The notes: generated by a model not told the origin, from the sequence alone. Shown: positions 23,116 to 32,932, numbered from the stretch's first letter. The stretch: 64,000 nt of DNA from an uncultured Candidatus Saccharibacteria bacterium (GCA_964560655.1 CAZLLR010000001.1:36202-100201); one strand, 5' to 3'. Translations and numbers: made by a program.

Positions 23116-23187
23116 TCCGGCGTAGCTCAGTGGTAGAGCAGTTGACTGTTAATCAATTGGTCGCAGGTTCGAATCCTGCCGCCGGAG
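23116..23187 (+). tRNA. tRNA-Asn (anticodon GUU)
   Basis: 72 nt. Acceptor TCCGGCG/CGCCGGA, D-arm GCTCAGTGGTAGAGC, anticodon loop CTGTTAA, T-loop TTCGAAT. U1-A72 as in E. coli tRNA-Asn. Confidence 0.8.
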
Positions 23188-23245
23188 CAGAATAGACACT
23201 CTTCAAAATTTTGTAATTTATAGTGAAAAAAGCTACAATTTATCT

Positions 23246-23737
23246 GTGAAGATAATCAAGAAAATAGGCATAAATCTAGTAAATTATATAAGGAAAATAT
23301 ATTGGTTTACATTCAGGCCCACTACAATAGGGGTCAGGCTTTTAAATGTACACGATAATGAGATTTTACTTGTACGGCATACTTACTCTAACTACTGGTA
23401 TCTACCTGGAGGAGGAGCTAAAAAGAGGGTAGGTATTATAGACTCTCTAAAAAAAGAAATTAAAGATGAGCTCACTGTAGCACTAAATGAAGATCAACTA
23501 AATAATATCAATCTACTCGGAATCTATAACAATTTCCAAGAATATAAGAATGATTATATTTTTCTCTTTATTTTAGAAAATGAAAGGCTAATTCTATCTG
23601 ACACTAAAAGTATTGAGATAGAAGAAGCCAAGTACTTTAGTCTTGATGCCTTGCCTAGCAACATATCTCCCGGAACAAAAAGAAGAATAGATGATTCTTT
23701 ATCAAGAAGAAATAAGGTGATAATAGATAAATGGTAG
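23246..23737 (+). CDS. NUDIX-fold protein with a degenerate Nudix box
   Basis: LPGGGAKKRVGIIDSLKKEIKDEL approximates GX5EX7REUXEEXGU, but the first Glu is absent and R is replaced by K. Confidence 0.4.
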   Translation: MKIIKKIGINLVNYIRKIYWFTFRPTTIGVRLLNVHDNEILLVRHTYSNYWYLPGGGAKKRVGIIDSLKKEIKDELTVALNEDQLNNINLLGIYNNFQEYKNDYIFLFILENERLILSDTKSIEIEEAKYFSLDALPSNISPGTKRRIDDSLSRRNKVIIDKW

Positions 23738-23821
23738 AAAAAGGACCCGACACCTTTTACTTGTTTTTTGTAAAGATTGTTAATAAGAAAAAAGGAGGAA
23801 CAAAAGAAAATCGTGAATAAA

Positions 23822-23858
23822 AAAAGGGGTTAGCATTATAGCTAACCCCTTTCTCATA
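23822..23858. terminator. bidirectional hairpin AAAGGGGTTAGC...GCTAACCCCTTT
   Basis: 12-bp stem between convergent genes (23246 on plus, 23870 on minus). Confidence 0.6.
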
Positions 23859-23869
23859 AACCATACCTC

Positions 23870-24070
23870 TTACTTCGGGTTCCATGGGAGTTTTTTCCAC
23901 TGTCCTCCGGGAATCCTGACTGTGGTGTGCCCATTATTGACCTCACCTTTCGGATCTATATTGAAGGAATCGTGGACGTCTCCTCCAATTGGTGATGAGC
24001 CTGCCGGCTGTATGCCAAAATTGGGCTTTAAGGGCTTGAAGCCTGAGTTTCCTCCATTCATGATAATCAC
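23870..24070 (-). CDS. 66-aa Gly/Pro-rich small protein P1 (MIIMNGGNSGFKPLKPNFGIQPAGSSPIGGDVHDSFNIDPKGEVNNGHTTVRIPGGQWKKLPWNPK)
   Basis: Minus strand. AGGAGGTG SD 7 nt before the ATG, sigma70 promoter (TTGACT-17-TATTCT) upstream, terminator downstream. Paralogous to the 26410 ORF. Confidence 0.55.
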   Translation of the reverse strand: MIIMNGGNSGFKPLKPNFGIQPAGSSPIGGDVHDSFNIDPKGEVNNGHTTVRIPGGQWKKLPWNPK

Positions 24071-24127
24071 CTCCTTTCTATTGTCAGCAGTAAAACTGAT
24101 TAAAAAATAAAAAACTTATCTATTTTC

Positions 24128-24156
24128 AGAATAACAATCTTTTTAAAATTAGTCAA
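24128..24156 (-). promoter_or_regulatory. sigma70-like promoter for the 23870..24070 gene (TTGACT-17-TATTCT on minus strand)
   Basis: -35 at plus coordinates 24151-24156 and -10 at 24128-24133, with exactly 17-nt spacing. Confidence 0.5.
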
Positions 24157-24251
24157 TATATTTTTATATATTAAAAACTAACCAAATAGGTTCGAACATC
24201 GTCTAGTGATTTGACAAAATAGCACTTTAATGCTATCTTTTTATTAGATAA

Positions 24252-24281
24252 AAACTAAACTTTGTACATAAAAAAAGGAGG
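24252..24281 (+). promoter_or_regulatory. conserved 5' leader motif (AAACTAAACTTTGTACATAAAAAAAGGAGG), instance 1
   Basis: Member of a recurring element with consensus TAAACTYYGTACTTTAAAAAGGAGG placed immediately 5' of the start codon. Preceded by TTGACA-17-TATCTT. Confidence 0.5.
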
Positions 24282-24288
24282 TGTGATT

Positions 24289-24522
24289 ATGAAGCTATCA
24301 GAAAAACGAATAAGGGAGATCGCATTTCTTTACCTCAAGTGGAAACTTGAGAGGGAAGGATTTTCTCTGCAGAATTTTCAAGATAGGGTGACTTTTACAT
24401 GCGGTGCGATAGGCATACCAGAAGAAGAAGGTATGGCGTTCGCAAAAGAAATTCTTACGCGTTTAGAAAAAAGATCTGTCGATGATGCGTTATCAGAGGC
24501 TAAGCCTGTCGGATCTGCGTAA
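24289..24522 (+). CDS. 77-aa hypothetical protein (MKLSEKRIREIAFLYLKWKLEREGF...)
   Basis: ATG at 24289 preceded by the GGAGGTG SD. The ORF-track start at 24262 lies inside the leader motif. Confidence 0.55.
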   Translation: MKLSEKRIREIAFLYLKWKLEREGFSLQNFQDRVTFTCGAIGIPEEEGMAFAKEILTRLEKRSVDDALSEAKPVGSA

Positions 24523-24541
24523 ATGTAACACTCTTTTTTAA

Positions 24542-24567
24542 AGACCACACAAAACATCGTGTGGTCT
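24542..24567. terminator. hairpin AGACCACAC-aaaacatc-GTGTGGTCT (bidirectional)
   Basis: 9-bp stem with A-run before and T/C-run after. The ACCACRC/GYGTGGT stem type recurs at 26623 and 29779. Confidence 0.6.
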
Positions 24568-24576
24568 TTCTTCTTG

Positions 24577-25500
24577 CTATTGTAAGAGTAGTTGTGCTAA
24601 TGAATCAATGACCCCTGGGTTGATATTATATTTAGGAAAGGAACCAAAAGGATTCACGTCTATCACAATTGGTTCTTCTCCTGAGATTACATCTATACAT
24701 AGATACTCTAGATTCAAATTTTTACAAAGAGACTTAAATTTACTCTCATACTCTTTAAAAATATCTGTTTCTATTTTAACTAATCTCGCTGAGCTTTTAT
24801 CTAGAGGATCGATTTCTTCTCTTTTATAAGAGAATATTTTATCTCCTATAATAAAGATTCTGTATTCCTCTCCCTTTATCTTATTTTGTAAAAGACAAGT
24901 CCCGAATATATCTATATGTTTTTTTAAATCAATATTTCCTTCAATAATATGAGGTGGATAAATATAAGCTGTATCCCCGCTATCTTCTTCAAAAGATAAC
25001 ATTTCTTTTAATTGAGTTTCTGCCTCAGGTAAAGCTTGAGAGAAATAACAATTTCCAAGACTTTTAGAAATCTGTGTTTCTGAAAATTTTAAGTCCATAT
25101 TATTTTTTCTTAATACAAAAGAATTTGGTGTTTTAATTCCACATTCCCTTACTTTTTTGAGAGAATAAAGTCTATTTCGAGCAAAGTGTGCATCTTTGAT
25201 ATTATTTATACTAATATCAGTAAACAAAAGTCCGAGAGTTTTGAAGAATTCAGTATTTTCTCTTTTTTGGTAATCTTCCGTATGTGGGCTAATCAAATCA
25301 TAAGGGTATCTAATAAATGCTCGGGTAAAGGTTTTTATTGGATGTTTTTCTACTTTTTCTCCAATGTAAACAAATTTATCATCAACAGCCTTGATATCTT
25401 TATCTGAAAAAATAAGATCTTCTTTTTTTGATATTTTTCGGATAGATTTTTCTAAATCTCCTAAACTATTATATGAGCAAGCGAGTAATATTTTATTCAT
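24577..25500 (-). CDS. ATP-grasp ligase, RimK-like
   Basis: EYRIFIIGDKIFSYKRE matches RimK DIRCLVVGDEVV, and LEYLCIDVISGEEPIVIDVNPFGSF matches the RimK/MdnC C-terminal E-x-N Mg-binding motif. 307 aa. Confidence 0.65.
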   Translation of the reverse strand: MNKILLACSYNSLGDLEKSIRKISKKEDLIFSDKDIKAVDDKFVYIGEKVEKHPIKTFTRAFIRYPYDLISPHTEDYQKRENTEFFKTLGLLFTDISINNIKDAHFARNRLYSLKKVRECGIKTPNSFVLRKNNMDLKFSETQISKSLGNCYFSQALPEAETQLKEMLSFEEDSGDTAYIYPPHIIEGNIDLKKHIDIFGTCLLQNKIKGEEYRIFIIGDKIFSYKREEIDPLDKSSARLVKIETDIFKEYESKFKSLCKNLNLEYLCIDVISGEEPIVIDVNPFGSFPKYNINPGVIDSLAQLLLQ

Positions 25501-25513
25501 AGAAATTAAAATA

Positions 25514-25541
25514 AACAGGAGCGGATAACCGCTCCTGTTTA
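25514..25541 (-). terminator. perfect hairpin AAACAGGAGCGG-ttat-CCGCTCCTGTTT followed by a T-rich run on the minus strand, 13 nt upstream of the ATP-grasp ATG
   Basis: 12-bp stem, and the U-tract is present only on the minus strand. Positioned like an attenuator of a transcript reading into the ATP-grasp gene. Confidence 0.5.
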
Positions 25542-25699
25542 AATACTTAATCTTTCCAAATTTTATTTGCCATAATAAATATTATTAATTAATAATGGAC
25601 TAATTTAATGCTATCATAAAGTATTTTTTCTATCAACTAGGTCAAATAATTACCTTTTTTACCCAAAACTGGACATCAATTCTAAATCCTTCTTAACCT

Positions 25700-25900
25700 C
25701 CATCCAGTTCAAAGTTCTGAATGTATCCAGTAGACGGAGCCAAACAGAACAGCCCTCCAATTTTCGTCCGCGCCGAGCGTGGGGCGTGCGATGGGAGTGG
25801 AATTACCACGCACTCGGTGTGGAAGTGGTCGAGCTTTGTTCGAAATAAGTTCGGATTTCATCATATAGACGGAGTCTCGTAAAATAATCTCAAAATTAAA
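25700..25900. ncRNA. candidate structured RNA / GC-rich leader element (unassigned)
   Basis: Local GC-rich block in an AT-rich genome (CCGCGCCGAGCGTGGGGCGTGCGATGGGAGTGG...). Internal complementary segments CCGAGTGCGTGG / CCACGCTCGG. The only overlapping ORF (25709..25939, minus) starts with TTG, has no SD, and has atypical composition. Confidence 0.25.
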
Positions 25901-26022
25901 ATATTCTATATCAGAGGTTACATATTCATCTATGTTCAAGCCACTTGTCTTTTTTCATATATATGATTTAATGAAAATAGATATATTGGTCTTTAAAAAT
26001 CGTAAAGAAGGAGGTGAGTAAG

Positions 26023-26364
26023 ATGGCAGATTTTAAAGTGAAACTTATACAAATTCCCATTATTCCAAGTTTGAGTCCCGGAACACCGGAGTTTAGAGAA
26101 GATAGACGCGCTCATATGTCCACATTAATGTCTATCTATGAGATGAGTAAGAAGGAAAGGACTTGCCCTAGATGCGGTGAAAATAAAAGTCCAACTAAAC
26201 CCCAATGTTTCTCTTGTCTTTCAACAAGTGTTCTAAGCCTCCATTACCTTTCCGAACAAACAAAGGAATGTAAATTTCACGGAATTAATTTCTGTCCAAA
26301 ATGCGACAAATTTATGCCCTCATTTATGAAAAAATGCCCCAGCTGCTTTTATAAAAGGAGTTGA
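26023..26364 (+). CDS. 113-aa Cys-rich small protein with four CxxC pairs, N-terminus MADF
   Basis: SD AAGGAGGTG. CPRC...CFSC and CPKC...CPSC. The first 30 or so nt including the SD are near-identical to the 26410 ORF. Confidence 0.55.
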   Translation: MADFKVKLIQIPIIPSLSPGTPEFREDRRAHMSTLMSIYEMSKKERTCPRCGENKSPTKPQCFSCLSTSVLSLHYLSEQTKECKFHGINFCPKCDKFMPSFMKKCPSCFYKRS

Positions 26365-26409
26365 ACTCTAAACATGCCTATACTGTATATAAAAAGGAGG
26401 TGAGTAGAA

Positions 26410-26606
26410 TGGCAGATTTTAGAGATAGCTTCCCTAAGGTAGACCCTCGCATGAAGATCAGATCTGATCTCGATAACCGTAAACACGGACCGCATCATGA
26501 TGTGTTCGTCCCTGTTTCTGGAGGAACTGATCAAACAAGGGTTACCCCCGATGGAGAGGTGATCGGCGGAACTACTAACATAGGAAAAGCCAAAAAGGAC
26601 TGGTAA
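26410..26606 (+). CDS. 65-aa small protein P2 (MADFRDSFPKVDPRMKIRSDLDNRKHGPHHDVFVPVSGGTDQTRVTPDGEVIGGTTNIGKAKKDW)
   Basis: SD AAGGAGGTG. N-terminus is duplicated from the 26023 ORF. The C-terminal PDGEVxGGTT...KK block is paralogous to P1 (23870..24070). Confidence 0.55.
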
Positions 26607-26617
26607 ATACCAATTCT

Positions 26618-26652
26618 AAAAAGGCCACATAAAAGATTGTGTGGCCTTTTTT
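26618..26652 (+). terminator. rho-independent terminator GGCCACA-taaaagatt-TGTGGCC + TTTTTT
   Basis: Stem plus T-run after the 26410 ORF. Confidence 0.65.
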
Positions 26653-26743
26653 ACCCCAAACAGGTTCAAATATCGTCACCACAAGAGTACTTCCATTTTC
26701 TAATTCGCAATCTCAAAGAAAATTAGGTCGCCAGTAGGCGGAG

Positions 26744-26772
26744 TTGACCTTCTTAAGTATATATTATATAGT
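26744..26772 (+). promoter_or_regulatory. promoter TTGACC-17-TATAGT
   Basis: Same architecture as the promoters at 29225 and 31909. Upstream flank carries CCAGTAGGCGGAG. Confidence 0.45.
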
Positions 26773-26783
26773 ATTTTTAGAAT

Positions 26784-26810
26784 TAAACTAAACTTTGTAC
26801 TTTAAAGGGG
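26784..26810 (+). promoter_or_regulatory. conserved 5' leader motif, instance 2 (TAAACTAAACTTTGTACTTTAAAGGGG)
   Basis: See the 24252 entry. Confidence 0.5.
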
Positions 26811-26817
26811 TGAGATT

Positions 26818-27177
26818 ATGACAATGGAAGAAGACACAGTAGATCGTAGTCCGAGAAGAATAGATCGAACAAGAATTTTTAAAGGTAACTTCGCTCGAAA
26901 AATACTTAAAAGATCAAGATATTCTCCCATAGAAGTTGAAAACTTCATGATAAAGAATAAAGTTTACTGGAATGGAGATCTCGAACTTAAGGAAAACGGT
27001 GTCCATAGTCATTGCTACTACACAGAGATGTTCTGGAGTATCATGAAGAGAATACCTACTGGCGTCCATGAAATATCTGAAATAGAATCATTCAAGCCAA
27101 GGAGACCAATTGTTTTACTACTTAGATTCTTCGGTTCTTATCTGTATTTAACAAAGCTAAAGAAATCTTTATCTTAA
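26818..27177 (+). CDS. 119-aa hypothetical protein
   Basis: ORF with the conserved leader/SD. No recognisable domain. Confidence 0.5.
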   Translation: MTMEEDTVDRSPRRIDRTRIFKGNFARKILKRSRYSPIEVENFMIKNKVYWNGDLELKENGVHSHCYYTEMFWSIMKRIPTGVHEISEIESFKPRRPIVLLLRFFGSYLYLTKLKKSLS

Positions 27178-27196
27178 CCCATAAGGAGATAGACAA

Positions 27197-27379
27197 ATGA
27201 CTCAGAAGGAAGGAGCACTTATAGATAAAGACGTCAAGCACCCAAGCCACGATACACGATCCTCAGATGCGTCAACTTATGACGAGGTATGCAAAAAATG
27301 CGGAGCAACAGATAAAGTCCCTGGTGGTTGGGGACGGCTTGCCCTACTTTGTCCTAAAAACTCTAAAGCTATAGCTTAA
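27197..27379 (+). CDS. 60-aa small protein with CxxC...C (zinc-ribbon-like)
   Basis: SD AAGGAG 8 nt upstream, and a terminator after it. Confidence 0.5.
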   Translation: MTQKEGALIDKDVKHPSHDTRSSDASTYDEVCKKCGATDKVPGGWGRLALLCPKNSKAIA

Positions 27380-27395
27380 GTCAAGGTGGTTGATC

Positions 27396-27428
27396 GCTCA
27401 CAAGACATATTCTTGTGAGCATTTTTTT
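27396..27428 (+). terminator. rho-independent terminator GCTCACAAG...CTTGTGAGC + TTTTTTT
   Basis: 9-bp stem plus T7. Confidence 0.65.
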
Positions 27429-27733
27429 ATAAAGATAATTTTTTCTACCCAAATAAATAAGCCCGAGTATTGTCACCATAAGAGGACTTCTATCTTTATA
27501 CTCCTTCTAATCACTAAGGATTAGGTCACCCAGTAAACAGAGTCAGTTAAAATAGTCTTATTTTTTAGGCTATTTTATTTTATCTCATATGAGATTTTGA
27601 CGGGCGTTAGAGGTTATAATATTTGTGTTATACTTTTTTATATGAAGAAGAAAACTCAAATATTATTTATACATGGTGGTATGACCTTTAAGAAACAGAA
27701 AGATTATTTACATCATTTAAAAACTAAAAAAAT

Positions 27734-29224
27734 ATGGACGATAATATAACGATACTTACAAAAACAGATTTCAAAGAATACCTTTTGTGCAATAAGTGTC
27801 TTTGGCTTAAAAAGAAATGCCCGGAGGAATATATTCAAGGTGACTTTTCTCTTTTCCTTAAAAAACTTATAAAAGACGGTTATGAAGTTGAATCATATGT
27901 ACAAAAACTTTTTCCTGATGGTGTCTTTCTCTCAGGCGACAAAGAAGCATTGATTTCGAGAACAAAAGATTTACTTACAGGAGATAAACCAATCTTCCAA
28001 GCAACCTTTGAAACAGATAGTGGCCTTTTTGCTAAAGTCGATATTCTTGATTTTAATAAAAAGACAAATAAGTGGGACTTGTACGAAGTAAAAGCAAGTT
28101 CAGAAATAAAGACGGATATAAAACACAACCACGTTAAAGACGTTATATTTCAGACAATCGTTGCAGAAGACTCAGGAGTTGATATTGGTGATAGTTACAT
28201 TATCTATATAAATAGGGAATATAGGCGCAGTGGTGACATAGACCTTGATAAGTTATTTATAGTTGAGAATATTGTCGAAAAAGTAGTTGAGCAAAAGGAG
28301 TTAGTACGAGGAGAGATACAATGTGCGTTAGACATGCTTAAGAAAGATGATGTGTCTCTCGATGGATGTGACTGTTTATACAAAAGCCATGGCCAACGGT
28401 GCGATTCTTTTTTTAAGTTTAACCCAAATGTACCCGAGTACTCTATTCACCACATTGTCACAGGAAATAAGCTAAAGACACTTTTAGAAGAAGGACTGTT
28501 AGATATAAAAGATATACCAGAAGATTTTGAACTTACTGATATTCAAAGAGATAAGGTTTCCCTGCAAAAAATAGGTAAACCTCTTATAGATAAAATTGCA
28601 ATAAAACAAACCTTGTCAGAGTTAGTGTTTCCCATATACTTTCTAGACTATGAAACATATGGATCTCCCATACCTCTTCTTGATGGCTATAAGACGAATC
28701 AGCAAGTCGTATTTCAAGTATCATTACATGTGTTAAGAGAAGATGGAACATTGGAACACTTTGAGTATTTAGCAGATAAGCTAGATAGTGCCACGAGAGG
28801 GCTTGTAGATATGCTAAAGGCTAATATAGGCGATGTGGGGAGCGTCGTTGTATGGTATGAGAGCTTTGAGAAGGGGAGAAATGCAGAATTAGCCGAATTA
28901 CACCCAGAAGATAAAGAATTTATGGAAGATTTAAACAATAGAGTGTTTGATCTTATGAAAGTTTTTAAGAAAGATTACTTGCATCCAGATTTCCAAGGTA
29001 GCGCCTCAATAAAGAAAGTTCTTCCTGTTCTTTTGCCAGAGCTGTCATATAAAAATTTGGACATACAAAACGGTACGATGGCGCTTAGTGAATGGGAGAA
29101 GATAATTAAAGGAAAGTTGAGTAAAGAAGAGGCTGAAAAAATAAAGCAAAATTTACTAAAATATTGTGAGCTCGACACACTTGCTATGGTAGAGATATAT
29201 AAGAAGTTAGTTATGTTAGCATAA
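27734..29224 (+). CDS. DUF2779-type protein: N-terminal Cas4/RecB-like PD-(D/E)xK nuclease fold plus C-terminal RNase-H-like region
   Basis: D...DLYEVK nuclease motif (VDILDF...WDLYEVKAS), Cys cluster (CNKC...C, CDCLYKSHGQRC), C-terminal FLDYET acidic motif. About 500 aa as in the DUF2779 family. Family assignment is from memory. Confidence 0.6.
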   Translation: MDDNITILTKTDFKEYLLCNKCLWLKKKCPEEYIQGDFSLFLKKLIKDGYEVESYVQKLFPDGVFLSGDKEALISRTKDLLTGDKPIFQATFETDSGLFAKVDILDFNKKTNKWDLYEVKASSEIKTDIKHNHVKDVIFQTIVAEDSGVDIGDSYIIYINREYRRSGDIDLDKLFIVENIVEKVVEQKELVRGEIQCALDMLKKDDVSLDGCDCLYKSHGQRCDSFFKFNPNVPEYSIHHIVTGNKLKTLLEEGLLDIKDIPEDFELTDIQRDKVSLQKIGKPLIDKIAIKQTLSELVFPIYFLDYETYGSPIPLLDGYKTNQQVVFQVSLHVLREDGTLEHFEYLADKLDSATRGLVDMLKANIGDVGSVVVWYESFEKGRNAELAELHPEDKEFMEDLNNRVFDLMKVFKKDYLHPDFQGSASIKKVLPVLLPELSYKNLDIQNGTMALSEWEKIIKGKLSKEEAEKIKQNLLKYCELDTLAMVEIYKKLVMLA

Positions 29225-29253
29225 TTGACTTTTTTAAGTATCTCTTGTAAGAT
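29225..29253 (+). promoter_or_regulatory. promoter TTGACT-17-TAAGAT
   Basis: Near-identical 29-mer to the promoter at 31909 (TTGACTTTTYTRARTATMTCTTGTAARAT). Confidence 0.5.
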
Positions 29254-29270
29254 ATATTTAGATAGAAAGA

Positions 29271-29303
29271 TAAACTCCGTACTTTATAACTTAAAAAGGA
29301 GGA
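29271..29303 (+). promoter_or_regulatory. conserved 5' leader motif, instance 3 (TAAACTCCGTACTTTATAACTTAAAAAGGAGG)
   Basis: See the 24252 entry. Confidence 0.5.
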
Positions 29304-31937: not shown

Positions 31938-31952
31938 ATGTTTAGAAAAAAT

Positions 31953-31977
31953 AAACTTCGTACTTTAAAAAAGGAGC
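31953..31977 (+). promoter_or_regulatory. conserved 5' leader motif, instance 5 (TAAACTTCGTACTTTAAAAAAGGAG)
   Basis: See the 24252 entry. Confidence 0.5.
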
Positions 31978-31984
31978 TATAACT

Positions 31985-32932
31985 ATGAGACAGAAAGTTA
32001 TTCTATTCGCTGGACCAGGAAGAGTTGCTGAGCCTACAATAGATAAATTAATACCATACGGGTGGAAGGCTGTAGTCAGTTATAGAGAAGGGCATAGAAA
32101 AGAAAGTGGCTCTCAAAAGACTGTAGAAACTTTAATCAATAAATATGGTACTGATGTTGTCTATGGTATCCCGGCAGAAATATCAGCGTACCCTGAAGCA
32201 CATAGATTCATAACAGAGGCCATGGCACACTATCCAGATATTGAAGAAATTGCCTTAATCAACGTAGCTTCTCAATATCCACCTAATCCATTTTTTGATA
32301 GAGCAACCAAAAGTGAGCTAATCAAAAAAGACTGGCGATACTTTTTATCCAACTTCTGCGTGATGCAGAACGTGACAAGGGTATTTCTAAGGCAGCTTGA
32401 AGGGAAAAATATAAAAGCAAATATCATAAGCTTCGGAGACAGTAGGGCTTATGAATATTTTTACCCTGACATCATACATCCTTTCTATTTCTCTAAAGAT
32501 AGAAAGGATAAAGATATCATCAACCTTTCTTTAAAAGAAGCTAAGGTGTTAGGATTAGATCTCCTAAGAAAATTGGGGGTAATTGGAAGGGATTGTAACC
32601 CTTATATGCTCTCAAAACTCTTGATAATGTATGCTACAAGAGAGCTTGCCCTTAAGCACGCTGGAGGTAACACTCAGATAAATGTCCTTGCTCCTGGAAT
32701 AATGGGCACATCTCCAAATGATAAACCCGGAGAAGCTGAGGCCTTTGCAAGAAAAACTACAATCTTACAGAGGATAGGAGGCTTCACCTCCGCTGCTGAT
32801 AAAATCGCCCACTTAGTAAGTGACAACTCTTATACTACTGGGGAGATAATCACAATAGATGGAGGTAAGCACCTGATATGGCTTGAAGAGCAAGAAATGA
32901 AGCGAAATAGAAGAAACTTAAATTTAGCTTGA
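31985..32932 (+). CDS. SDR-family NAD(P)-dependent oxidoreductase (enoyl-reductase-like)
   Basis: N-terminal Rossmann-type FAGPGRVAEP and C-terminal APGIMGTSP...ITGEIITIDGG. Confidence 0.65.
   Translation: MRQKVILFAGPGRVAEPTIDKLIPYGWKAVVSYREGHRKESGSQKTVETLINKYGTDVVYGIPAEISAYPEAHRFITEAMAHYPDIEEIALINVASQYPPNPFFDRATKSELIKKDWRYFLSNFCVMQNVTRVFLRQLEGKNIKANIISFGDSRAYEYFYPDIIHPFYFSKDRKDKDIINLSLKEAKVLGLDLLRKLGVIGRDCNPYMLSKLLIMYATRELALKHAGGNTQINVLAPGIMGTSPNDKPGEAEAFARKTTILQRIGGFTSAADKIAHLVSDNSYTTGEIITIDGGKHLIWLEEQEMKRNRRNLNLA

Follow-up and report, generated by a model that had tools for sequence, protein, structure and literature searches.

The graspetide macrocyclases (MdnC/MdnB, AMdnB, CdnC, PsnB and PruB) are three-domain ATP-grasp enzymes of about 310 amino acids (aa), encoded next to the gene of a ribosomal peptide with an invariant acidic residue. 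A survey of graspetides recognized two ATP-grasp branches in the candidate phyla radiation (CPR), together with many loci for which no precursor gene could be located, and its authors suggested that small open reading frames (ORFs) may have been missed by gene callers (PMC8939145). Here we analyze a stretch of 64,000 nucleotides (nt), hereafter the window, from an uncultured Candidatus Saccharibacteria bacterium (GCA_964560655.1 CAZLLR010000001.1:36202-100201), in which the gene of an ATP-grasp ligase is preceded by an ORF of 8 codons (the mini-ORF), whose predicted product MANKIWKD ends in the motif (I/V)W(K/Q)D, and by a terminator-like hairpin. This cassette illustrates a possible form of the precursor that is missing at the CPR loci. 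The survey does not mention the motif (PMC8939145); 'cluster 23', the neighbor present at all of its CPR loci, is not among the conserved neighbors found here, no direct comparison having been made. Looking for the peptide strings, for minimal RiPPs (peptides made on the ribosome and modified after translation) that involve ATP-grasp enzymes and for ATP-grasp RiPPs of the CPR brought up nothing relevant in searchable open-access full text.

The window enzyme finds its nearest profile and fold relatives among the graspetide macrocyclases, with which it shares the three-domain architecture and the size, and like them it adjoins a ribosomal peptide gene with an invariant acidic residue (the mini-ORF, in 23 of 23 loci). 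The peptide differs from graspetide precursors in having only 6-11 residues, in lacking a leader and in carrying its acidic residue at the C-terminus. It does not combine a leader with a core that holds Thr, Ser or Lys and Asp or Glu, and macrocyclization through side-chain esters or amides cannot be the conserved reaction of the mini-peptide system.

Two other systems are built around very short precursors. The mccA-mccB pair of microcin C consists of a heptapeptide gene, an intrinsic terminator that sets the peptide-to-enzyme ratio and the gene of a modifying enzyme, and mccA has both regulatory and substrate roles (PMC4231749). The succession of a very short ORF (7 codons there, 6-11 here), a terminator and an enzyme gene recurs in our cassette. 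However, MccB is an adenylating enzyme of the ThiF/E1 type that forms a peptidyl-nucleotide on a C-terminal Asn, whereas an ATP-grasp enzyme and a peptide ending in Asp are found here; the mcc operon moreover includes export and immunity genes, of which there are none here, and the likeness is one of gene layout alone. In the biarylitides, the pentapeptide gene bytA and the gene of a cytochrome P450 form a two-gene cluster (bioRxiv 10.1101/2020.07.21.214643; PMC13417212). The two-gene logic and a leaderless precursor whose shortness hides it from gene callers are common to both systems, but the biarylitides are actinobacterial and involve a P450 and an aryl cross-link.

Carriers and protein tails modified by ATP-grasp enzymes offer further parallels. 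LysW and ArgW end in EDWGE, and their C-terminal Glu is loaded by the ATP-grasp enzymes LysX and ArgX (PMC10433800). The W-x-acidic-COOH spacing of these carriers is also that of W-(K/Q)-D, a likeness to be taken as a lead and not as a test, and ArgX is a structural neighbor of the window ligase. In contrast to the mini-peptide, which has no zinc ribbon, LysW is a zinc-ribbon protein of 54 aa that accepts its load on the gamma-carboxylate of Glu, and no pathway genes of the LysZ/Y/J/K type were present in the ligase neighborhoods examined. RimK, an ATP-grasp enzyme and structural relative that adds poly-Glu tails to ribosomal protein S6, has as its target a ribosomal product's C-terminal carboxylate; it differs in that its substrate is S6 and not a dedicated mini-peptide. 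Finally, leader peptides of the TnaC/MsrDL/ErmL type resemble the mini-ORF as tiny conserved ORFs placed directly before a terminator hairpin and a gene. The mini-ORF differs from them in forming, at some loci, a convergent unit of its own or lacking a terminator, in having no evident antiterminator, and in being linked to a gene for a peptide-modifying enzyme.

Conservation of the mini-ORF

The mini-ORF lies inside the interval covered by a preliminary description of this DNA, where it was missed, and was noticed on reading the 130 nt upstream of each ligase homolog. In a systematic scan, each of the 21 non-redundant loci whose ligase gene is flanked by 130 nt or more had such an ORF; the four loci without one are on contigs that stop 85 nt or less upstream of the ligase. 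Two more members of the family, fetched later as a prospective test, both had a mini-ORF (MIASKIWKD in locus L037 and MIKAAIWKD in L038). In total, an ORF of 6-11 codons ending in (I/V)-W-(K/Q)-D-stop adjoins the ligase in 23/23 non-redundant loci, upstream and on the ligase strand in all but one. These loci span Patescibacteria, a Cloacimonadota chromosome, a metagenome-assembled genome (MAG) of Cyclobacteriaceae (Bacteroidota), an 'Acidobacteriaceae' MAG and marine metagenomes, and the ligases that they encode are down to 31% identical to the window enzyme. As judged from this distribution, the mini-ORF travels with the ligase family across phyla. In the 64 kb of the window, the 12-nt W-(K/Q)-D-stop pattern (TGG-MAR-GAY-stop) has a single site on both strands, that of the mini-ORF, with about 0.4 expected by chance.

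Independently of the pattern that was searched for, no locus lacked the motif, and the residue before Trp was always Ile or Val. The N-terminal parts of the peptides differ in length (MA-, MK-, MANK-, MKIFK-, MTLSA-, MCCK-, VKRRKK- and others), while the frame and a start codon are always kept. Codon usage within the motif is mixed: Asp is encoded by GAT 9 and GAC 12 times, Lys by AAA 14 times and AAG once, Gln by CAA 4 and CAG 2 times, Ile by ATT 12, ATC 6 and ATA 1 times and Val by GTT twice, and the stops are TAA (15), TAG (3) and TGA (3). In seven distant loci, Shine-Dalgarno sites of the AGGAGG type precede the mini-ORF at proper spacing. Since the variation is synonymous or conservative, the frame is kept and Shine-Dalgarno sites occur in these seven loci, the mini-ORF should be coding, and the pattern of substitutions indicates selection at the amino-acid level. 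On the ligase tree, position -1 of the peptide alternates between Lys and Gln in four or more lineages independently. The peptides conserve neither Ser nor Thr nor Lys, and their sole invariant residues are Trp and the C-terminal Asp.

The arrangement of the mini-ORF is not uniform. In L008/L010, a mini-ORF encoding MAIWKD is situated downstream of both the ligase gene and an oxygenase-like one, in convergent orientation and with a hairpin of its own, and in L007 and L028 the spacer between mini-ORF and ligase extends over 138-160 nt. To judge from the gene order in L008/L010, the mini-ORF can sit as an independent transcription unit. Locus L025 has, at about position 409, a second and start-less copy of the motif (...KKIQWQD-stop), 114 nt upstream of an intact mini-ORF encoding MAIWQD; this copy may be a decayed duplicate. 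Four matches to ATGGCNATHTGGMARGAYTRA on viral contigs were taken as chance, since none was accompanied by a ligase or a hairpin.

An all-against-all blastp comparison of ORFs of at least 18 aa within 2.5 kb of the ligase, made over 29 loci, revealed no conserved conventional precursor; apart from incidental genes, its sole yield was an oxygenase-like partner of roughly 190 aa in three lineages. The mini-ORF did not appear in it because it is too short for blastp.

The ligase family

The preliminary description had placed a RimK/MdnC-type ATP-grasp ORF of 307 aa upstream of which the mini-ORF is now seen, and had preferred a peptide maturase to a housekeeping RimK. The ORF is present as described, with a Pfam ATP-grasp_3 match (E 6e-5), and the assignment to the ribosomal-peptide-maturase kind is borne out by both profile and fold comparisons, which rank graspetide maturases first. 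Matches to NCBIfam were weak and fell on MvdC, MvdD and GRASP_w_spasm; the best score against a curated model was 23.5 bits where the cut-off is 230, and all curated models remained far under their cut-offs (230-475 bits for the graspetide models). The score against rimK_fam (TIGR00768) was 16.3 bits, below the model threshold of 143.4.

A database search returned homologs in 27 clusters (90% identity), none of them annotated and the majority derived from metagenomes of Patescibacteria, and an exhaustive profile search of 1.84 billion representatives yielded 44 proteins of the family at E <= 1e-30. Among near-full-length proteins, scores fall from 126 to 72 bits directly below the family, and the next tier is made up of maturases of the MvdC/MvdD/SAV_5884/grasp-with-spasm type. 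The family alignment is marked by the motifs FIRYPYDLIxPH, RExTEFxKT, KSLGNC and VIDxNPFGS. Invariant residues include K146, E212, R214, D270 and D281-x-N283, which would fit the ATP- and Mg-binding set expected of ATP-grasp enzymes in general.

Compared with solved structures, the family profile matched MdnC (entry 5ig9, E 4.6e-7), together with AMdnB (7m4s), PsnB (7drm), CdnC (7mgv) and 5ig8, whereas the RimK structure 7qys was reached at E 0.52. Both the MvdC and the MvdD models were matched by 23 of 25 family members, the rimK_fam model by 8, and LysX_arch by 2 (E about 0.01; 0.013). A fold search with an AlphaFold model of the ligase (mean predicted local distance difference test 86.8, predicted template modeling score 0.85) placed MdnC at the top (E 1.6e-17, template modeling score 0.70), followed by AMdnB, CdnC, PsnB and PruB; ArgX and RimK appeared at about 1e-12, some five orders of magnitude weaker than the graspetide macrocyclases. 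Because profiles, model-match counts and predicted fold all rank MdnC-type enzymes above RimK, the ligase is best described as a divergent relative of the graspetide macrocyclases, distinct from RimK and in a clade of its own. With scores far under the curated cut-offs and a gap below the family, this clade would be a sister group or outlier of the MdnB/MdnC/PsnB-type maturases rather than a member of them.

The ligase ATG at 25500 has no Shine-Dalgarno site and sits 3' of the hairpin. The database starts of some homologs (P0015 and P0005; L037 position 786, L003 position 6001) fall inside or upstream of this terminator hairpin; the N-terminal extensions of P0015 and P0005 are spurious, and the alignment favors the ATG after the hairpin. 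At alignment column K221, Lys is found in all five ligases that are paired with a peptide ending in ...WQD, whereas the column is variable, and acidic in 6 of 13, in ligases paired with ...WKD. Charge compensation between K221 and position -1 of the peptide could be at work, the sample being too small to judge.

Promoter candidate and hairpins of the cassette

The coordinates of the cassette and of other features are collected in Table 1. A promoter candidate precedes the mini-ORF of the window, and boxes resembling TTGACA and TATGAT are also found upstream of the mini-ORF in L009 and L003. The hairpin between mini-ORF and ligase has a stem of 13 bp with 7 GC pairs and a loop of 4 nt followed by a U-rich tail, and its folding energy is -22.7 kcal/mol (z = -7.1 against shuffled sequences). 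Stem sequences differ among loci, and RNAalifold recovered only 3 pairs from the post-stop hairpins because the stems cannot be aligned; the hairpins were therefore assessed by folding each locus against shuffles. Significant folding relative to shuffles (z < -2) was obtained for the 50 nt after the mini-ORF stop in 21 of 23 loci; the stem begins 0-8 nt past the stop, and most of these hairpins carry U-rich tails. In L026, the 31 nt between mini-ORF and ligase hold no significant hairpin (z -1.7); in L007, none was found in the 50 nt after the stop, and the hairpin of L015 is without a clear U-tract. The DNA of hairpin and leader is conserved in L009, L001 and L006. The mini-ORF shows no apparent antiterminator pairing with the stem's 5' arm.

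Table 1. Coordinates of the cassette and of other features. Positions refer to the window unless a locus is named.
Feature	Position	Strand	Remarks
Sigma-70-like promoter candidate	25608..25636	minus	TTGATA-17 nt-TAGCAT with TG extension; consensus match only; about 35 nt upstream of mini-ORF
Mini-ORF, 8 codons + stop	25547..25573	minus	Translation MANKIWKD; proposed substrate or partner of the ligase
Intrinsic-terminator-like hairpin	25512..25541	minus	Between mini-ORF stop and ligase ATG
ATP-grasp ligase, 307 aa	24577..25500	minus	Discrete family nearest the graspetide macrocyclases
Hairpin, 11-bp stem	24540..24569	plus	Between convergent 3' ends of ligase and 77-aa ORF; closes the ligase unit
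77-aa ORF	24289..24522	plus	
113-aa Cys-rich ORF	26023..26364	plus	
P2 ORF	26409..26606	plus	
tRNA-Asn	23116-23188		Followed by poorly conserved genes (23246-29224)
Oxygenase-like gene	L008 6899-7501 (= L010 5899-6501), L015 5902-6438, L023 1017-1607		HxD...H motif; sub-threshold 2OG-FeII_Oxy_3 match (E about 0.015)

Small proteins around the ligase

In the preliminary description, the partners of the ligase were sought among three small proteins named P1, P2 and the 113-aa Cys-rich protein, regarded as precursors with shuffled modules. All three ORFs exist. The Cys-rich protein gives sub-threshold matches to zinc ribbons only, and P2 begins one base away from the position first reported. P1 stands as an ORF with a revised start: public annotation and Shine-Dalgarno spacing favor an ATG at 24061 (63 aa), which sits behind the Shine-Dalgarno site AAGGAGGTGA, over a GTG at 24070.

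The common start region of the 113-aa gene and P2 was confirmed (26005-26038 and 26391-26424, 88% identical over 34 nt), and the window contains its 25-nt core at exactly two sites, against an expectation of 0. It consists largely of the generic Shine-Dalgarno sequence AAGGAGGTGA, which P1 also uses and of which the 77-aa and 119-aa ORFs use close variants, and nothing is shared past MADF (p = 0.52), contrary to the idea of a common protein module. The two genes are adjacent on the plus strand and otherwise unlike each other, and MADF is missing from the one homolog of P2; the 34-nt segment suggests local duplication or conversion of a translation-initiation region. The C-terminal block proposed for P1 and P2 is recovered by Smith-Waterman alignment (score 41, shuffles 25.1 +/- 5.1, p about 0.012) but is otherwise weak: tblastn at E <= 10 found no link between the two, profile-profile comparison with hhalign gave a probability of 17% over 19 columns (E 0.0015), and the PxGEV core is lost in the sole homologs, which read NKEGNV (P0029, for P1) and TRDGDV (P0033, for P2). 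The segment IQxPxxxSxSPxG, said to link P1 with the 113-aa protein, is out of register and scores below shuffles (p = 0.89).

Comparative data point in the same direction. Among 5.8 billion proteins, P1 and P2 have one homolog each, P0029 (68% identical, on a contig of 681 bp) and P0033 (67% identical, on a contig of 1116 bp and without MADF); the gene preceding P0033 matches neither the ligase nor anything else in the window and is DUF2726-like by eye only. The expectation that MADF or PxGEV peptides accompany related ligases failed, none being found by tblastn in nine loci (L001-L009) or by ORF comparison in 29 loci. Nor did tblastn detect homologs of the P1, P2, 113-aa, 77-aa, 76-aa, 119-aa or 60-aa ORFs in those nine loci, and these small proteins had no match above threshold in Pfam or NCBIfam. 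In all, P1, P2 and the Cys-rich protein were absent from the surroundings of about 22 ligase homologs. P1 is separated from the ligase by the convergent 77-aa gene and a terminator, and the 113-aa gene and P2 diverge from it on the other strand. P1 and P2 do contain residues of the graspetide type (Thr, Ser and Lys with Asp and Glu), but they show no linkage to the ligase family. The three genes are not co-transcribed with the ligase, have no relatives beside its homologs and share features mostly at chance level, so that the reading as module-shuffled precursors is not upheld. We regard them as unrelated, lineage-specific orphans in a variable stretch next to tRNA-Asn. The conserved feature of the locus is the cassette of mini-ORF, hairpin and ATP-grasp gene; the preliminary description identified the kind of enzyme correctly but not its partners.

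Proposed function and alternative explanations

We lean, with modest confidence, toward a minimal cassette of the RiPP-like or carrier-peptide type, whose ligase activates the C-terminal Asp that is invariant in the mini-peptide. The unit would be a two-gene cassette on the minus strand that comprises the promoter, the MANKIWKD gene, a leaky terminator hairpin and the graspetide-type ATP-grasp ligase, with the mini-peptide as the putative substrate of the enzyme. Because of the terminator, short transcripts of the peptide gene would be abundant and those reading through into the ligase scarce, as in microcin C. By analogy with the graspetide macrocyclases, RimK and LysX, the ligase may phosphorylate the alpha- or beta-carboxylate of the C-terminal Asp, and the acyl-phosphate would then be captured by a nucleophile. 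The alternation of Lys and Gln at position -1 implies that a Lys amine is not the essential nucleophile, and since no Ser, Thr or Lys is conserved, a classical graspetide ring is excluded as the conserved reaction. The nucleophile would more likely be an external amine or amino acid, in a C-terminal ligation of the RimK or LysX kind with the peptide as carrier or scaffold, or else the N-terminal amine or a modified Trp. That the loci represent an undescribed, phylum-spanning system, in which a dedicated ATP-grasp enzyme processes the C-terminal Asp of a ribosomal peptide of 6-11 residues ending in (I/V)W(K/Q)D through chemistry outside that of known graspetides, is a proposition whose chances we consider evenly balanced.

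Several observations weigh against a substrate role for the mini-peptide. With no conserved Ser, Thr or Lys as nucleophile, canonical graspetide chemistry cannot apply, and a peptide of 6-10 residues is too short to include the leader bound by known graspetide ligases. Conservation at W-(K/Q)-D-stop is in part a product of the search pattern, which fixed these positions. An AU-rich leader without a Shine-Dalgarno site precedes the mini-ORF in the window and its closest relatives, though the small genes nearby carry strong sites. Near the ligase loci examined, there is no conserved gene for an exporter, a protease or immunity. The layout of upstream ORF and terminator in most loci is also classic for a regulatory leader peptide, and the indication that the mini-ORF may act in trans comes from one lineage (L008/L010).

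The last of these points leads to an alternative that we judge unlikely though by no means negligible, namely that the mini-ORF is a cis-acting leader on which a ribosome in the course of translation or arrested at ...IW(K/Q)D-stop controls read-through of the terminator, in the manner of short arrest peptides that govern attenuators, the true substrate being encoded elsewhere. Very short conserved leader peptides that control terminators include TnaC, whose function depends on a critical Trp and Asp, and MsrDL, which has 6 residues. Such a role would suit the position of the ORF upstream on the ligase strand in 22/23 loci, a ligase gene without a Shine-Dalgarno site behind the hairpin, and the preservation of hairpin and leader DNA in the three loci named above; moreover, with a stable hairpin starting 0-8 nt after the stop in 21/23 loci, a terminating ribosome would overlap the stem. 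In L008/L010, however, the ORF lies downstream in convergent orientation and has a terminator to itself; it therefore cannot attenuate the ligase there, and yet the peptide is intact. Neither the missing hairpins of L026 and L007 nor the absence of a clear U-tract in L015 fits attenuation, no alternative antiterminator pairing is apparent, and the conservation of one peptide over three or more phyla that differ in their ribosomes and promoters suits a product better than a sensor. We favor the reading of the mini-peptide as substrate or partner because of the convergent unit of L008/L010, the lack of a hairpin in L026 and the long spacers of L007 and L028, and also because no antiterminator is apparent and the nearest relatives of the ligase are without exception modifiers of ribosomal peptides or protein tails. 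The mini-ORF may serve as both regulator and substrate.

It is improbable, in our estimation, that the ligase is a housekeeping enzyme of the RimK or LysX kind with a substrate elsewhere, such as a ribosomal protein tail, and that the mini-ORF is an unrelated upstream element. Such a role would agree with the clear structural relationship to RimK and ArgX (E about 1e-12), with a gene neighborhood that is otherwise not conserved and lacks an exporter, and with the occurrence of the family in reduced Patescibacteria genomes. But graspetide maturases outrank RimK and LysX by profile and by fold, with the RimK model at 16 bits where 143 are required; the family is rare and patchy (44 clusters), unlike a housekeeping function; and the 23/23 linkage and amino-acid-level conservation of the mini-ORF would be left unexplained. 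We give scarcely any credence to the view that P1, P2 and the Cys-rich protein are paralogous, shuffled graspetide precursors cross-linked by the ligase. In its favor, all three are found no farther than 1.5 kb from the ligase, Thr, Asp and Lys are abundant in P1 and P2, which also have their weak common block, P2 and the 113-aa gene have their 34-nt start region in common, and fast-evolving, locus-specific precursors are known in some graspetide branches (PMC8939145). Against this, none of them is on the ligase transcription unit or has relatives beside ligase homologs; the single homologs of P1 and P2 are on short contigs and do not conserve the PxGEV core; the similarity of P1 to the 113-aa protein is at chance level, and P2 and the 113-aa protein have only MADF in common. 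The comparative context thus largely refutes this view.

If the mini-peptide is the substrate, its gene would be among the smallest dedicated substrate genes of any peptide-modifying enzyme, and ATP-grasp enzymes would join the few classes (MccB and P450) that use leaderless mini-precursors invisible to gene callers; RiPP mining that starts from called ORFs would therefore probably miss such cassettes. The chemistry might be a C-terminal ligation of an amine or amino acid, with the peptide as a miniature carrier or scaffold, or a cyclization between the Trp or the N-terminus and the Asp. As the cassette is kept in symbiotic, genome-reduced Patescibacteria without an exporter, its product may act inside the cell or in host interaction and not as an antibiotic. 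With a tetrapeptide motif as the likely partner of an uncharacterized ATP-grasp family, the chemistry can be tested with a synthetic peptide and one enzyme.

Neighbors of the ligase homologs

In three distant lineages, a 2-oxoglutarate- and Fe(II)-dependent (2OG-Fe(II)) oxygenase-like protein of 178-200 aa is encoded directly downstream of the ligase or overlapping it (Table 1). This gene is not in the window; the protein is a candidate tailoring oxygenase of the ligase system. Radical S-adenosylmethionine (SAM)/SPASM genes flank the ligase of L007 (4618-5757, 7217-8539 and 8967-10232), a radical SAM gene is upstream of that of L014 (3897-4460), and UbiE-like methyltransferase genes abut the ligase in L003 (6979-7767) and L038 (1819-2457). 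Radical SAM/SPASM and methyltransferase neighbors have been reported at loci of CPR graspetide branch 2 (PMC8939145), and the same types are met occasionally here. The neighborhood of the ligase gene is otherwise unconserved. In L004, a tRNA gene lies upstream of the ligase.

Other features of the window

A GC-rich patch at 25690-25880 (about 0.47, with flanks of about 0.27) with an internal 28-nt repeat is situated between the mini-ORF promoter and the Cys-rich gene. The patch was rejected as a structured RNA (z = -1.3 and -1.2 on the two strands, no Rfam match), and its ORFs had no match in Pfam. Positions 25646-25743, which overlap its lower edge, are 69% identical to positions 985-1084 of L017, just downstream of the L017 ligase. 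The patch may be a gene remnant. Rfam searches of the whole window, and permissively of 25450-26050, returned two tRNAs and sub-threshold hairpin matches only.

A block resembling a promoter and 5' untranslated region, TTAGA..AAACTAAACTTTGTAC..GG(A/G)GGTG.GATTATGA, is present at 24234-24273 and 26767-26806, before the 77-aa (24289) and 119-aa (26818) ORFs, and weaker copies are found at about 31946-31976, upstream of an ORF at 31985, and at 29225-29286, after 29224. From its recurrence, the block may be a common regulatory leader of several small genes. The poorly conserved genes that follow tRNA-Asn encode a NUDIX protein, P1, the 77-aa ORF, the ligase cassette, the Cys-rich protein, P2, the 119-aa and 60-aa ORFs and a DUF2779 protein, and this stretch may be a variable island.

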